Shown here: positions 3,617-33,722 of the stretch, one piece after another
Position numbering within the stretch: the first letter of the stretch is position 1
Layout of the letters: every line of letters starts with the position of its first letter
IMG/VR virus record: IMGVR_UViG_3300012863_000021
Span: 1 to 34,039 of that record
Direction: 5' to 3' (one strand)
DNA from: a virus
Taxonomy: Duplodnaviria > Caudoviricetes
DNA: 34,039 nt
Position numbers and translations under genes: made by a program
Notes under the pieces: model-generated
What the model saw: the letters and a program-made list of their open reading frames with translations, nothing else
What the model was told of the DNA's origin: nothing
The model's database searches: none

Positions 3617-6225
3617 GCGCCGTGCTCGGCGCCGCCCTCGATCTGCTCGAGCACGGCTACTCGATCATCCCGATCCGCCCAGACCGTAGCAAGGTCCCCG
3701 CCCTGCCCTCCTGGAAGCGGTACACCGCCGAGCGTGCGACGGCCGACGACCTGCACGCGTGGTTCGCCGACGACCAGCACGACCTCGGCGTCGTCCAGGG
3801 CACCGTGTCGGGGCACGCCGAGCTCACCGAGCTCGAGGGCCGCGCCGTCGCCGCGCTCCCCGACCTCAAGGCCCTCGCGCACGACACCGGCCTCGGCGAC
3901 CTGTGGGACCTCGTCACCACCGGGTGGGTCGAGATGTCCCCCTCCGGCGGGCTGCACTTCCACTACCGCCTCACCGACGGGCCCGTGCCCGGCAACACCA
4001 AGCTCGCACGCCGGCCCGCCACCCCCGACGAACTCGCCGCCAACCCCGGCGACAAGGTGAAGGTCCTCGCCGAGACCCGCGGCGAAGGCGGACAGGTCGT
4101 CGTCGCCCCCTCCCGCCACCACGCCACCGGCCGCCCCTGGGCGCGACTGCTCGGCGGACCCGCCACCGCGCCGACGATCACCCGCGAGCAGCGCGACGCG
4201 TTCCACGCCGTCCTGCGCACCCTCAACGCCCAGCCCGAGCCGCCCACGCCCGCCACGACCACGCCGAGCACCCCGCGCACCTTCGGCGACGGCATCACCC
4301 CCGGCGACGACTACGAGAACAAGACCGACTGGGCCGACATCCTCACCCCCCACGGCTGGCAGCTCGTCACCCAGCGCGGCCGCACACGGTACTGGCTGCG
4401 CCCCGGCAAGCCCCTCGGGTCCGGGTTCTCCGCCACCACCGGGCACGCCGACGACCGCGACCGTCTCTACGTCTTCACGACGAGCACGGACTTCGACGCC
4501 GAGGTGCCGTACACGAAGCTCGGGGCCCTGGCCGTGCTCGAGCACGGCGGGGACCACTCGGCGGCCGCCAAGGCCCTGCACGCCGACGGGTACGGGCAGC
4601 GCCCCGAGCAGACCCGCCCCCAGCACGCCACCGGCGATGACCTCGCCGGCCTCATCGCCCCCACCCACCAGGAGACCCCGTGGCCGACGACACCTGCGAC
4701 TGCTTCCCCGACCACCCCGACGGCCGCTGCACCTGCGACGGCTGCTGGGCCTGCGACGGCCACGTCCTCGACTGCACCTGCGACATCGCCTGGGACTGCC
4801 AGCACCGCCTCGGGGCCTAGCGAGCCGGCCACCTACACCGAGACCGACGACGGCAACGCCCTACGCCTCGTCGACACCCACGGCCACCACGTCCGCTACG
4901 TCCCCCAACGCGGCCAGTGGCTCACCTGGACCGACCACCGCTGGACCTGGGACGAAGCCGGACACGTCCACGAGCTCGCACGCGACATCGCCCGCAACCT
5001 GCCCACCCACGACCGCACCGCCGAACGCCACCGCAAGACCACCCTGTCCCGCCGCGGCGTCGAAGCCATGGTCGCCCTCGCCCGCACCGACACCCGCACC
5101 ACCGTCCACCTGCGCGACCTCGACGCCCGACCCTACGAGCTCAACACCCCCGCCGGCGTCGTCAACCTCCGCACCGGGACACTGTCCCACCCCGAACCCG
5201 CCGCCCTGCACACCCGCTCCACCGCCGTCGCACCCGCACCCGCAGGCACCCCACACCCCCTGTGGGACAAGTTCCTCGCCGACACCTTCGCCGGCGACCC
5301 CGCCCTGACCACCTACCTGCAACGCCTCCTCGGCGTCTCCCTCGTCGGCACCGTCCTCGAACAACTCCTGCCGTTCGCGCACGGCCTGGGCGCCAACGGC
5401 AAGACCACCCTCCTCGGCGTCGTACAGCGCCTCATCGGCATCGGCGACGACGGGTACTCCATCAGCGCACCCGCCGAGATGCTCCTGGCCACCCACCAGC
5501 AAGGCCACCCCACCGAGATCGCCCGGCTCGCCGGCGCCCGCCTCGTCGTCACCTCCGAGCTCGAGGACGGGCAACGCTTCGCCGAAGCCCGGATCAAGCA
5601 GCTCACCGGTCGCGACGTGATCAGCGGCCGGTTCATGCGCCAGGACTGGTTCTCGTTCGTCCCCACCCACACCCTGTGGCTGCTCGCCAACCACCAGCCC
5701 GCCGTCAAGGCCGGCGGGCCCGCGTTCTGGCGGCGCCTGCGACTCCTGCCGTTCGAGCACACCGTCCCCCCCGAGGCACGCATCGCCGACCTTGAAGACC
5801 GGCTCGTCGACGACGAAGGCCCGGCCATCCTTGCCTGGCTCATCACCGGCGCCCACGACTACTTCACCCACGGCCTGGCCGAACCCGCGTCCGTGCGCAC
5901 CGCCACCGACACGTACGCCGCCGACCAGGACACCGTCGCCCGGTTCGTCGCCGAGGAATGCGCCACCGGCGACCCCAACGCCCAGCACCTGCAGGTCCGC
6001 GTCGCCGTCATCCGCGCCGCCTACGAACGCTGGTGCCGCACCGAAGGCGAGGAGCCCGTCTCCCCGAAGTCCCTCACCCAGCAGCTGCGCGCCCGCTACG
6101 GCGTCATCTCCGAACGCGACTCCGCCGCCCGCCTGTACTCCGGGATCCGCCTCAACGATGTGTCACGCGACGACACCGAACCGTCACGCACCGAGGCCCG
6201 GTGGCAGCAGGACGAGGGCTGGTGA
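3613..6225 (+). CDS. Bifunctional primase-polymerase / P4-D5 family SF3 helicase
   Basis: N-terminal prim-pol motifs (SPSGGLHFHY, ETRGEGGQVVVAPS); Walker A GLGANGKTT; IKQLTGRDVISGRFMRQDWF; FWRRLRLLPF. Confidence 0.93.
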   Translation: MSAVLGAALDLLEHGYSIIPIRPDRSKVPALPSWKRYTAERATADDLHAWFADDQHDLGVVQGTVSGHAELTELEGRAVAALPDLKALAHDTGLGDLWDLVTTGWVEMSPSGGLHFHYRLTDGPVPGNTKLARRPATPDELAANPGDKVKVLAETRGEGGQVVVAPSRHHATGRPWARLLGGPATAPTITREQRDAFHAVLRTLNAQPEPPTPATTTPSTPRTFGDGITPGDDYENKTDWADILTPHGWQLVTQRGRTRYWLRPGKPLGSGFSATTGHADDRDRLYVFTTSTDFDAEVPYTKLGALAVLEHGGDHSAAAKALHADGYGQRPEQTRPQHATGDDLAGLIAPTHQETPWPTTPATASPTTPTAAAPATAAGPATATSSTAPATSPGTASTASGPSEPATYTETDDGNALRLVDTHGHHVRYVPQRGQWLTWTDHRWTWDEAGHVHELARDIARNLPTHDRTAERHRKTTLSRRGVEAMVALARTDTRTTVHLRDLDARPYELNTPAGVVNLRTGTLSHPEPAALHTRSTAVAPAPAGTPHPLWDKFLADTFAGDPALTTYLQRLLGVSLVGTVLEQLLPFAHGLGANGKTTLLGVVQRLIGIGDDGYSISAPAEMLLATHQQGHPTEIARLAGARLVVTSELEDGQRFAEARIKQLTGRDVISGRFMRQDWFSFVPTHTLWLLANHQPAVKAGGPAFWRRLRLLPFEHTVPPEARIADLEDRLVDDEGPAILAWLITGAHDYFTHGLAEPASVRTATDTYAADQDTVARFVAEECATGDPNAQHLQVRVAVIRAAYERWCRTEGEEPVSPKSLTQQLRARYGVISERDSAARLYSGIRLNDVSRDDTEPSRTEARWQQDEGW
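4680..4820 (+). CDS. Overprinted 46-aa Cys-rich protein (MADDTCDCFPDHPDGRCTCDGCWACDGHVLDCTCDIAWDCQHRLGA) in an alternative frame of the primase linker
   Basis: AGGAG at 4670-4674, GTG at 4680, TAG at 4818-4820. Every codon ends in G or C in this frame. 9 Cys and 3 His. Confidence 0.6.
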   Translation: MADDTCDCFPDHPDGRCTCDGCWACDGHVLDCTCDIAWDCQHRLGA

Positions 6226-27095: not shown

Positions 27096-27638
27096 ATGGG
27101 GCCCGCTCTCGGAGACCCGCGACTCCCAAAGGCGTTCTGGGACAAGGTCGACCTCGACCATGTCACCGGGTGCTGGAAATGGCAAGCGCGCACGAATAGC
27201 GGCGGATACGGTTCGCTCAATATCGACGGCCAAAGCCTTTACGCCCACCGCCTCGCCTACGCGACACTCGTGGCTCCCATAGGTGAGCGACTGGTTATTG
27301 ATCACCTATGCCGCAACCCCCGGTGCGTCAATCCAGCACATCTAGAACCTGTACCCACAGGAGAAAACATCCGCCGGGGATTCAAGGGTTACGCCATCCG
27401 GTCAAACATCTGCGCACAGGGTCATGACACAACCCGGACCGGCGTTCGGATCGATCGACGCGGAAGCGGCCAGGGTCGTGACTGCCTCGCATGCCATCGA
27501 CAGCGTGCCCGAGATCAGCATGCCGCGATCCGTGCGGCATCGGTAGCACTAGGTGTATCACAGGCGGAATACACAAGGGCATACGGATATTCCACACGAA
27601 CGGCAATCGCAATCGTGACGCAAGCCAAAGAAGGGTGA
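27096..27638 (+). CDS. Free-standing HNH homing endonuclease
   Basis: CWKW...GYG...YAHRLAY...IDHLCRNPRCVNPAHLEPV..GEN; C-terminal CxxGH/CxxC; markedly lower GC. Confidence 0.92.
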   Translation: MGPALGDPRLPKAFWDKVDLDHVTGCWKWQARTNSGGYGSLNIDGQSLYAHRLAYATLVAPIGERLVIDHLCRNPRCVNPAHLEPVPTGENIRRGFKGYAIRSNICAQGHDTTRTGVRIDRRGSGQGRDCLACHRQRARDQHAAIRAASVALGVSQAEYTRAYGYSTRTAIAIVTQAKEG

Positions 27639-31847: not shown

Positions 31848-32145
31848 CGGATCGAACTACGGCCAGACGCCTGCCCTGCTGTCTTCGGTCCCGGGGGAGG
31901 CACGGCTGTACAACCTGCCGTCAGCACGCGTCTCGGTCGCAACCGTCCGGTGGTACTTTTCCCGTAATGCCGCGACAGGTGCGTGGGTCGAGGGCGATCA
32001 GTTCTACGCGTGCGAACCCATCGCGGAAGTTGTCACATCCTCCGGGGTCACCCTTCCGGGCCCGTACTTCGACGGCGACACCGCCCGCGCGGAATGGACC
32101 GGCACGCCGAACGCCAGCCCGAGCACGCTCTGGTCGGCCGGCTGA
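31612..32145 (+). pseudogene. Start-less C-terminal carbohydrate-binding-like tail module in the +1 frame
   Basis: Reads PKFTTLGG...PYFDGDTARAEWTGTPNASPSTLW, with the same end motif as the modules in the hub gene. No RBS or start. Lower GC. Confidence 0.6.
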
Positions 32146-32165
32146 CCCCCCCGCCCCGCACGACG

Positions 32166-32195
32166 ACGCCCCTCCCGCTTCGGCGGGAGGGGCGT
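32166..32195. terminator. Probably bidirectional intrinsic terminator between convergent units
   Basis: 13-bp stem ACGCCCCTCCCGC / GCGGGAGGGGCGT with a TTCG tetraloop. Confidence 0.85.
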
Positions 32196-32196
32196 T

Positions 32197-32319
32197 CTGT
32201 CATGCCCGGCCAGGGCCGGGAGTACCAACCACCATCGGTTGCTGGGTTCACCCCCGGCGTGCGGGGACATCCACCTACCGGCGACTGTCACTCGGCTCAT
32301 CCCCGCGTGCGGGGAGTGG
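32197..32319 (-). CRISPR. Degenerate type I-E-like mini-array (3 repeat-like units, spacers of 21 and 18 nt); candidate Racr / crRNA-like RNA
   Basis: Minus strand: CCACT-CCCCG-CACG-CGGGG-ATGAGCCG (32319-32293), GATGT-CCCCG-CACGC-CGGGG-GTGAACCC (32271-32244), GTACT-CCCGGC-CCTG-GCCGGG-CATGACAG (32225-32197). Compare the I-E repeat pattern GTGNTCCCCGCGNNNGCGGGGATGANCCG. Confidence 0.7.
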
Positions 32320-32406
32320 TCATGAGGGTAGCGGGTGTCGAGCCGCGGCGCGGCGGTTTCGGTCAGGCGAGCCGGACAGGTCGACCACGTGCTGCCCCGC
32401 CGGCGC

Positions 32407-33093
32407 TCACCCTTGGTCCTCGACGCGTGCGGGTCGCCCACCCTTGCCGGGGCGCGCCGCGTGCCAGGTCAGCACCTCGCCGCGGTCCCACACGTCCAGC
32501 CTGCGCCCGCGGTACCCGACCGGCGCGTCCCCGAGCGGGCGCGGGACCCCGGCGTCACCTCGCGCGTGGTACGCCCGCCACGTCGAGGCTGTGACCCCGA
32601 CCAGCGCGGCGGCCTCGTCGGCGGTCAGCATGTCGCTGCGCTCGCGCCACAGCGCGGTGAGCGCACGCGAGACGCGCACGGCCGTCGGCGTCCACCCCGG
32701 GTCCCGCGACCCCCAGATGACGTGCACGGCGTACTGCTGTACGGCGCGGGGACGGGCGTCGCGGGGACGCTCGGTCTCGAGGCGCGCACCGGGCAGGTGG
32801 TCCAGGAGCCGGGCGACCGCCTCGTCCGCGTCGCGGCGGGTCAGCCACCCCAGGGAGTGCATCAGGGCCATGCGCCCGCCGGCGTACACGCCGACCTGCA
32901 CCCGTACCCGCCCGGCGACCATCGCGGCCATCTCGTCGGCCGGCAGGTCCCGTGTACCGCGCGGCAGGTGCACGACGTCGAGGTCGGCCGCGAGGGCGTC
33001 GAGCTCGCGCATCAGCGGCCAGCGGTGCGCCCGCGGCCAGTGCCCGTGGGCGTCGAGGTGATCGGCGGACGGCGGCGGGACGGCGGTGGGCAC
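32407..33093 (-). CDS. Two-domain protein with C-terminal HTH (AlpA/MerR-like); candidate Aca-type regulator or Acr-HTH fusion
   Basis: MLTADEAAALVGVTASTWRAYHARG...P.P...W...EV..W...RPG motif; last gene of the minus-strand operon. Confidence 0.75.
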   Translation of the reverse strand: MPTAVPPPSADHLDAHGHWPRAHRWPLMRELDALAADLDVVHLPRGTRDLPADEMAAMVAGRVRVQVGVYAGGRMALMHSLGWLTRRDADEAVARLLDHLPGARLETERPRDARPRAVQQYAVHVIWGSRDPGWTPTAVRVSRALTALWRERSDMLTADEAAALVGVTASTWRAYHARGDAGVPRPLGDAPVGYRGRRLDVWDRGEVLTWHAARPGKGGRPARVEDQG

Positions 33094-33096
33094 CGC

Positions 33097-33321
33097 TCAG
33101 TCCTCCACCGCGACGACCGCGGCGTCCGGGACTCGCAGGGTCAGCCCGTCGCGGTAGGCGACCTCGGTCATCCCGGGCTCGTAGTAGCCGATCACGACCT
33201 GCCCGACCCGCTCGGTCGCGTAGAGCCGGACCCGCTCGTCGGTGACCTTCGAGAAGTCCACCCGGGCGCGGGTGCCCGGGGTGTAGTAGGTGGTCCCGTC
33301 GCTCCATCGGCTGATGCTCAT
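33097..33321 (-). CDS. Small hypothetical protein (74 aa, beta-rich); Acr candidate
   Basis: AGGAG RBS before the ATG at 33321; high GC3. Confidence 0.8.
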   Translation of the reverse strand: MSISRWSDGTTYYTPGTRARVDFSKVTDERVRLYATERVGQVVIGYYEPGMTEVAYRDGLTLRVPDAAVVAVED

Positions 33322-33353: not shown

Positions 33354-33638
33354 TCAGCGCAGGGGCTTGAGGGTGCGCAGCGCGCGGGCCGGGATGGTCT
33401 CGTCCTGCGACCAGGTGGCCAGGTGCGCGTCGCGCTCGGCCTGCGGCAGGCGCTTCCACGCGTCGAGCGGGGCGTGCGAGGCGCGCTCGGCGGCGTCGAG
33501 GTCCAGGCGCGCCTGGAAGATCGCGGCGTTGCCCTCGATGGTGAGGTCGTCGTGGGTGCGCAGGGCCTCGTCGCGGGCCTGGCGTGCGGCGTGCTTGGCG
33601 AGGGCCGCGGCGAGTGCGTCCTGGGCGATGGTGCTCAT
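33354..33638 (-). CDS. Small hypothetical protein (94 aa, helical); Acr candidate
   Basis: AGGAGG RBS; first gene after the promoter. Confidence 0.8.
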   Translation of the reverse strand: MSTIAQDALAAALAKHAARQARDEALRTHDDLTIEGNAAIFQARLDLDAAERASHAPLDAWKRLPQAERDAHLATWSQDETIPARALRTLKPLR

Positions 33639-33677: not shown

Positions 33678-33722
33678 AATCTACAGCACTACAACCCTTC
33701 GCGCAACCGTACTGCTGTAGAT
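33678..33722 (-). promoter_or_regulatory. Sigma-A-type promoter TTGCGC-N17-TAGATT overlapped by a 14-bp inverted-repeat operator
   Basis: -35 at 33706-33701 and -10 at 33683-33678. Inverted repeat ATCTACAGCACTAC 33679-33692 / GTACTGCTGTAGAT 33709-33722 (13/14 match). Confidence 0.8.

Follow-up and report, generated by a model that had tools for sequence, protein, structure and literature searches.

A short-spacer type I-E CRISPR-like array in a Cellulomonas prophage as a candidate Cracr-type RNA anti-CRISPR

A 34,039-nucleotide stretch of viral DNA (the window, by which we mean the whole sequence analysed) carries on its minus strand three units resembling type I-E CRISPR repeats, separated by two short spacers. 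We consider that this array is probably a Cracr-type RNA anti-CRISPR, whose two short guides would form an undersized Cascade, compete with crRNAs and repress the cas operon without DNA cutting. It would extend the I-E Cracr-like arrays to Cellulomonas prophages and would otherwise be an expected example of them. We also tentatively propose, as an idea that we find possible rather than probable, that the short-spacer I-E arrays of actinophages, including those of the window lineage, aim Cascade at the most conserved codons within cas genes (K-V-V-V-I-D-E in cas3, N-L-N-R-D-D in cas7). In this arrangement, a Lys or Asn codon would act as the PAM and the unread sixth positions would fall on wobble bases, so that one guide would silence the cas operons of many strains by roadblock, even where no CreR circuit exists.

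The array begins with a −10-like hexamer, TACCCT (32325–32330), as its predicted promoter. Repeat unit 1 (32293–32321, stem at 32314) is a copy of a short-loop I-E repeat that folds into a hairpin and whose tail, ATGAGCCG, is the 8-nt handle ending at 32293. It is followed by spacer 1 (21 nt; 32272–32292), by unit 2 (32244–32271, stem at 32266), a degenerate I-E repeat in which the stem and the handle (GTGAACCC, ending at 32244) are kept, and by spacer 2 (18 nt; 32226–32243), which is self-paired (−4.8 kcal/mol, a stability equaled by 3% of shuffles). Unit 3 (32197–32225, stem at 32220), defined by alignment with the related loci L003 and L005, is a divergent terminal hairpin with a predicted 3′ handle. 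Beyond it, a 13-bp GC hairpin without a U-tract (32166–32195; z −6.3), with a hairpin in the corresponding position of L003 and L005, is the likely end of the transcript and may also end the convergent plus-strand genes. In the minimum-energy fold of the whole array, unit 1 pairs with unit 2 and no separate hairpins are formed. A search against Rfam matched nothing in the window.

These coordinates agree with a preliminary description of this DNA, which had placed the three minus-strand units, the hexamer and the spacers of 21 and 18 nt exactly here. The I-E 5′ handles that it reported are intact in units 1 and 2 and absent from unit 3, but the leader before the stem, given there as 5 nt, is 7 nt long in the matching Cellulomonas repeat. 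Its promoter is retained only as the hexamer: TACCCT, a TAnnnT hexamer, is present at 32330–32325, whereas there is no consensus −35 and the scan for sigma-70 promoters found none there. Similarly, the GC hairpin that it read as a terminator does follow the last unit, but the U-tract is missing and the terminator scan was empty.

To describe the host of this element, we considered the surroundings of the array. The window is a tailed-phage region with genes for a primase-polymerase, terminase, portal, capsid, tail and endolysin and, as previously noted, without a cas operon (a PHROGs scan of 61 ORFs gave 0 cas matches). The right 11.6 kb of the window recurs without differences in a 192-kb metagenome contig that runs on into bacterial genes, and thus the element is a prophage. 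Given that a flanking host protein is 83–89% identical to Cellulomonas proteins in its top matches, and that Cellulomonas iranensis has a 66% homolog of the gene adjacent to the array, the host is very likely a Cellulomonas. No related phage was found in the GenBank phage set, no homologous locus in the genome_contigs set, and no match to the exact unit-1 pattern in the viral_contigs set. When the array was compared with the contigs of four soil runs, the prophage contig alone matched, a search in which short host pieces may fall below the threshold. Two further features were observed in or beside this element: a short ORF resembling type II/IV secretion ATPases by the prophage end (L002:7663–8565), possibly interrupted by the insertion, and an HNH endonuclease gene in a low-GC stretch inside the tail region (27096–27638 of the window).

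Cas8e above the family cut-off was detected in 10 of 110 Cellulomonas genomes and in 30 of 337 genomes of the family, so that the host lineage does have the type I-E system, with a similar repeat, on which the preliminary description relied. We analyzed 29 of the 30 family cas loci (L338, a fragment, was left out); cas3 lies upstream in 27 of these 29, directly before cas8e. In five Cellulomonas loci (L141–L145), the repeat has just two bases between its six-base stem halves, and the alignment of the units to the host repeat, which the preliminary description had proposed, showed that unit 1 is identical to these repeats at 23–24 of 28 positions, including the unusual short loop. Host arrays have a 61-nt period with spacers of about 32 nt. 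The window array is not a canonical I-E array, as its units differ from one another and its spacers are 21 and 18 rather than 32–33 nt. The final base of the host repeat is mostly C or G, from which we infer that the host PAMs are AAC and AAG; AAG is the canonical I-E PAM, and AAC is added by this inference. None of 1143 host spacers closely matched the window, and the PAM could not be read from protospacers.

Exact matches to the repeat pattern (stem-loop plus handle) in the 34-kb window were limited to units 1 and 2, and 100 Markov-resampled windows gave a mean of 0 exact and 0.04 one-mismatch matches, although this test is partly circular because the pattern was composed after the units had been seen. 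That the array exceeds chance is instead indicated by independent evidence, namely the identity of 23–24 of 28 positions with host-genus repeats and the conservation in L003/L004 and L005. The degeneracy of the units, the absence of a handle from unit 3 and the 73% GC of the window, at which GC hairpins are common, would also fit a decayed array remnant, or a cluster of REP- or terminator-like hairpins without a CRISPR role. We regard this as extremely improbable, since the promoter spacing and the end hairpin are conserved in three lineages, the same design occurs in many actinophages, and host genomes do not carry the repeat pattern as a dispersed element. A dispersed REP-like repeat was specifically rejected: the pattern had 0 matches in three of five close genomes, and in the other two it matched a CRISPR array (G004) and a palindromic site (G005).

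The gene neighboring the array was found in four metagenome loci: L002 (the window prophage itself), L003, L004 and L005. L003 and L004, which do not differ over the stretch compared, have three units with spacers of 20 and 24 nt, and L005 has four units with spacers of 21, 21 and 22 nt. The TAnnnT hexamer precedes the first stem by 10, 10 and 9 nt in the window, L003 and L005, respectively. The sister arrays keep this hexamer, the short spacers, the divergent last stem and the end hairpin, whereas the spacers have changed; as judged by eye, L005 has a change in both partners of one base pair of its last stem. Spacer 1 of the window is related to spacer 1 of L003, and they differ at seed positions 2 and 3. 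As a separate observation, spacer 2 of the window (32226–32243) and spacer 1 of L005 agree at 12 of 18 positions when compared by eye, which hints that they have an origin or a target in common.

A viral pattern scan for two I-E repeats 14–26 nt apart returned 33 loci, of which 29 were kept after removing four coding tandem repeats. A few of these are normal arrays in which a single spacer is short, and the majority of the others resemble the window design by eye. Among these loci (L007–L039), about two dozen are I-E arrays of actinophages with short spacers, the majority of them preceded by a TAnnnT box and followed by a hairpin. The spacers extracted (56 viral and 7 from the three related arrays) are 20–21 nt long in 45 of 63 cases, 12 nt under the host length. 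The preliminary description had considered a tandem short-spacer I-E form to be unusual; with 29 viral loci from one scan, and with such arrays already published, this opinion did not hold. Similar spacers recur in L018, L021 and L027, and also in L016, L019 and L026.

The window array likely works like a Cracr. The Cracr preprint (Liu et al., bioRxiv 10.1101/2024.10.29.618823) reports 20 I-E Cracr arrays, with Actinomycetota among the targeted phyla, and describes a three-repeat CracrIE of a Salmonella prophage that lowers casA mRNA and rescues T7. Like CracrIE, the window array is prophage-borne, has no cas genes and consists of three I-E-like units with a degenerate last one; the spacers are short in both (24 and 21 nt in CracrIE, 21 and 18 nt here). 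The array also shares with Cracrs that it is phage-encoded outside a cas locus, has host-like repeats and handle, and contains two different shortened spacers. However, Cracrs are defined in that preprint by their likeness to the CreR/CreA of the host, and they target cas or creT promoters. When we required that a spacer resemble the CreR or CreA of the host, or that a cas or creT promoter match it at 9 or more PAM-proximal positions, we found neither a CreR-like partner nor a promoter target for the window in 29 family cas loci and 110 genus genomes, and the array is accordingly a candidate Cracr; the one strong target of the family lies inside the cas3 frame.

Other known elements share part of this design. 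The viral regulatory mini-arrays of Shmakov et al. (PMC10120712) likewise imitate host repeats and have shortened spacers, free sixth positions and small genes as neighbors. CreR (bioRxiv 10.1101/2023.03.10.532045) is similar in being a degenerate mini-CRISPR with an I-E handle, an AAG-type PAM and repression by Cascade, but it is encoded by the host in the cas locus and has one spacer, whereas the window array is encoded by the phage and has two. Racrs (Camara-Wilpert et al., PMC10651486) are repeat mimics of phages, preceded by a promoter, whose RNAs compete for Cas proteins, with working I-E examples; they are described as solitary repeats forming aberrant subcomplexes, in contrast to the array with intact 5′ handles found here, and the presence of three units led us to reject the assignment as a single-repeat Racr.

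Among the host genomes, G067 carries a mini-array upstream of cas3 (L149:3390–3480; G067:C251, about 32090–32180) with a 21-nt spacer, whose best PAM-flanked site in the locus lies just upstream (AAC-flanked, L149:3246) with 13 of 18 informative matches. This sequence likeness suggests a CreR-like host element with a candidate target upstream of cas3. CreR was found as one clear case among the 110 genomes with a strict pattern, and most sampled cas loci show none.

Evidence that the lysogen itself carries cas3 came from the four soil runs. We observed a 28-kb contig (19 kb in one run) containing a stretch of 100 nt that is 86% like G109 cas3 and translates to the end of the HD domain, and a second piece of 29 nt on the same contig. 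The depth of this contig (43.3, 23.5, 11 and 15.6) tracks that of the array contig (40.2, 22, 10.6 and 15.4) across the four runs, which suggests that cas3 belongs to the host, although the four runs may be the source of this DNA and may belong to one campaign and thus do not count as independent support. Only short pieces are at least 80% alike, and the actual host cas locus is more than 20% different from G109 over most of its length.

We then searched for targets of the window's own spacers. No PAM-flanked target was found in the 29 family cas loci or the 110 genus genomes, and the best informative matches, 12 and 13 of 15, were within the range of mock spacers (11–13). The cas3 upstream regions and the array leaders contained no target for these spacers. 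Spacer 1 resembles a motif of the leaders, and spacer 2 resembles a cas1 motif or the −10 regions of leaders; these likenesses were rejected, as none of them has a PAM or seed. While the crRNA-mimic reading of the preliminary description fits the I-E-like units and a host lineage with an I-E system and a near-identical repeat, a cas-promoter target of the kind that it had suggested was not found in these loci and genomes. Because the actual host cas locus diverges from G109 over most of its length, the window spacers may still have a strain-specific promoter target.

The same searches bear on whether the guides silence other genes of the actual host strain, for example those for a CreT-like toxin, for a different defence system or for a housekeeping function. 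I-F Cracrs do silence toxin promoters (bioRxiv 10.1101/2024.10.29.618823); however, a conserved gene should recur genus-wide, and the PAM-plus-seed patterns of the two spacers gave 0 and 1 matches in the 110 genomes, the single one in a hydrolase gene. Another genus-wide pattern gave 7 matches versus 5 in controls, none with AAG/AAC, and a further one gave 1 versus 3 in controls. We consider such host targets very improbable.

Guides directed against rival phages or plasmids, or against promoters of the prophage itself in an arm missing from the window, also seem improbable. Spacers of viral mini-arrays are reported to target mostly other viruses (PMC10120712), and no integrase or repressor was present among the scanned ORFs, so that part of the prophage was probably outside the search. 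In contrast, spacers shortened by 12 nt are poor cutters (PMC6859484), and in the viral_contigs set no high-GC phage with an AAG/AAC PAM appeared among the 17 matches to the spacer 1 pattern or the at least 119 matches listed for spacer 2, in a set with few Cellulomonas phages. No self-match went beyond 8 positions in the window or in L002–L006.

Cas6e cuts at the base of the repeat hairpin and leaves an 8-nt handle. In the Cracr-type mechanism that we favor, the array would be transcribed from the TAnnnT hexamer and host Cas6e would cut at the base of stems 1 and 2, yielding products of about 49 and 47 nt (about 86 nt should unit 3 escape cutting). The distance from the handle to the next stem is 26 and 23 nt in the window array versus 39 nt in host arrays, and on this basis the guides would load a Cascade missing about two Cas7 subunits. 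The undersized Cascade would drain subunits from immune crRNAs and, with its short guide, would bind without Cas3 cleavage and repress cas transcription. In I-E Cascade, 6 nt correspond to one Cas7 and 12 nt to one Cse2, and in the I-E system of S. thermophilus, R-loops form with spacers shortened by 12 nt, whereas spacers shortened by 6, 12 or 18 nt give no locking and no Cas3 cleavage (PMC6859484). In E. coli, however, interference was still seen with spacers longer than 20 nt (PMC5159557), and non-cleavage is therefore not assured. The self-pairing of the second spacers could hinder their loading. The seed differences between the first spacers of the window and L003, the joint fold of units 1 and 2, the rarity of CreR in the sampled loci and the finding of a target for just one of the seven spacers of the related arrays also weigh against this mechanism.

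A rather unlikely alternative is that the array acts solely as a Racr-like sponge, its RNAs binding Cas6e, Cas5 and Cas7 and diluting crRNAs, with the window spacers as structural fillers that have no DNA target. I-E Racrs inhibit I-E immunity (PMC10651486), Cracrs themselves also work through competition (bioRxiv 10.1101/2024.10.29.618823), the second spacers are hairpins, and a target was found for only one of the seven spacers of the three related arrays, leaving six without. This absence says little, since the host's own cas locus was outside the sequences searched. In addition, the handles are intact here, whereas the RacrIF1 complex is described without Cas5f and Cas8f (PMC10651486), spacer 1 is partly conserved between phages, and the one targeted spacer, in a sister array, is specific for cas3 and has a PAM.

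This spacer, spacer 2 of L003 (24 nt; approximately L003:3458–3481; the same in L004), has its match on the cas3 sense strand, in the codons for K-V-V-V-I-D-E-V-H, which contain the DExH motif, behind the PAM AAG (AAC in one locus). Over four loci the mismatches are at positions 12, 18, 20, 21 and 24, three of the five being sixth positions, which go unread in type I-E as well. For type I complexes this is stated in the case of I-F1 (PMC10120712). Searching the 110 genomes with the PAM and a 19-position seed gave 4 matches, all in cas3; without the PAM requirement there were 7 matches in five genomes, 4 in cas3 and 3 elsewhere that lack AAG/AAC. The spacer folds on itself with −11.1 kcal/mol, which partly reflects its palindromic target. 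From these matches, the predicted target of L003 is the cas3 coding sequence, and Cascade bound there would act as a roadblock to transcription of the entire operon, in which cas3 comes first.

A second case was found in L011, an unrelated phage, which carries a two-repeat mini-array with one 21-nt spacer (near 4001–4062, minus strand). Behind AAC, the spacer matches the conserved cas7 codons N-L-N-R-D-D-T up to position 18, except at positions 6 and 12. It does so once per genome, in cas7, in five genomes that were chosen for having the match. When the cas7 pattern was extended to cover the 3′ end of the spacer, it had 0 matches in 401 genomes of the class, so that the match stops at position 18 and the last three bases are unmatched. 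A run of 17 positions behind AAG/AAC was reached by 1 of 3996 mock spacers taken from phage DNA versus 2 of 61 real ones. Runs of 12 in spacers of L009, L018 and L031 are not claimed as targets, since 130 of the 3996 mocks reach 12. The spacers of L007–L039 were compared with Cellulomonadaceae loci only. In both L003 and L011, the guide would pair with the template strand, an orientation in which E. coli Cascade silenced an ORF about five-fold (PMC4288158).

The proposal that such arrays aim at conserved cas codons relies on these two matches; that it applies to the spacers of the window itself is distinctly doubtful, though perhaps the case. It resembles the action of CasPRs (Sanderson et al., bioRxiv 10.64898/2026.02.23.707548), which silence cas operons via conserved motifs in cas coding sequence, as predicted for the L003 and L011 spacers; CasPRs, however, are CapR/AP2 DNA-binding proteins of Bacillota phages, and RNA guides to cas coding sequence would, if real, be their RNA-guided counterpart. 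The Cracrs described so far imitate a regulator of the host and act on promoters, which vary between strains and exist in some loci only, and the CasPR report considers that promoter dependence likely limits them (bioRxiv 10.64898/2026.02.23.707548). A conserved coding target would escape this limit and would be hard for hosts to evade. The target search of Shmakov et al. (PMC10120712) kept only matches in intergenic regions, mini-arrays and arrays, and targets in coding sequence would have escaped it; since that search looked only between genes, cas coding targets, if true, would account for part of the viral mini-array spacers without a known target. We found no viral guide RNAs targeting coding sequence in the literature, where the preprint supplements and the large tables of Shmakov et al. 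may list these arrays, and the word "coding" is absent from the main text of the Cracr preprint (bioRxiv 10.1101/2024.10.29.618823). Guidance of Cascade into cas coding sequence is thus a variant that we did not find in print, whereas the short-spacer array architecture is already known. The idea offers a direct test with one 24-nt spacer and one cas3 site.

Upstream of the array, three small genes form a predicted operon on the minus strand. The first encodes a 94-aa protein (33354–33638; three homologs besides itself), conserved in L003/L004, and is followed by a 74-aa ORF (33097–33321) and by the gene of a 228-aa protein (32407–33093) that combines a rare N-terminal domain with a MerR/excisionase-like helix-turn-helix (PHROG 597 and homologs). 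An operator-like inverted repeat (33679–33722, minus strand) covers the predicted operon promoter; its arms are kept in L003 and L004 and its middle differs. The 228-aa gene lies upstream of the array in L002–L005. Its protein was modeled with a pLDDT of 87.5, the N-terminal domain confidently, and neither PDB sequences nor Foldseek gave a match at E≤0.001. It was rejected as a known Acr or CasPR because no such families matched, the resemblance being limited to the MerR/excisionase-like HTH, and the profile of this HTH had 0 matches in the neighborhoods of L007–L039. The operon resembles an acr-aca layout, with no Acr identified among its proteins. L003/L004 have an extra 163-aa gene before the array; this gene and those of the operon are candidate anti-defence genes.

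Finally, several features were observed among the host repeats. In G004, which has no Cas8e match, an I-E array ends in inverted repeat copies (L151:775–1170), and G005 has a solitary palindromic repeat pair (L152:4595). A lone repeat-like hairpin lies between cas3 and cas8e in G064 (L146:2390–2420). The array leaders of most Cellulomonadaceae I-E loci (L141–L337) have conserved motifs about 50 nt and about 15 nt before the first repeat.
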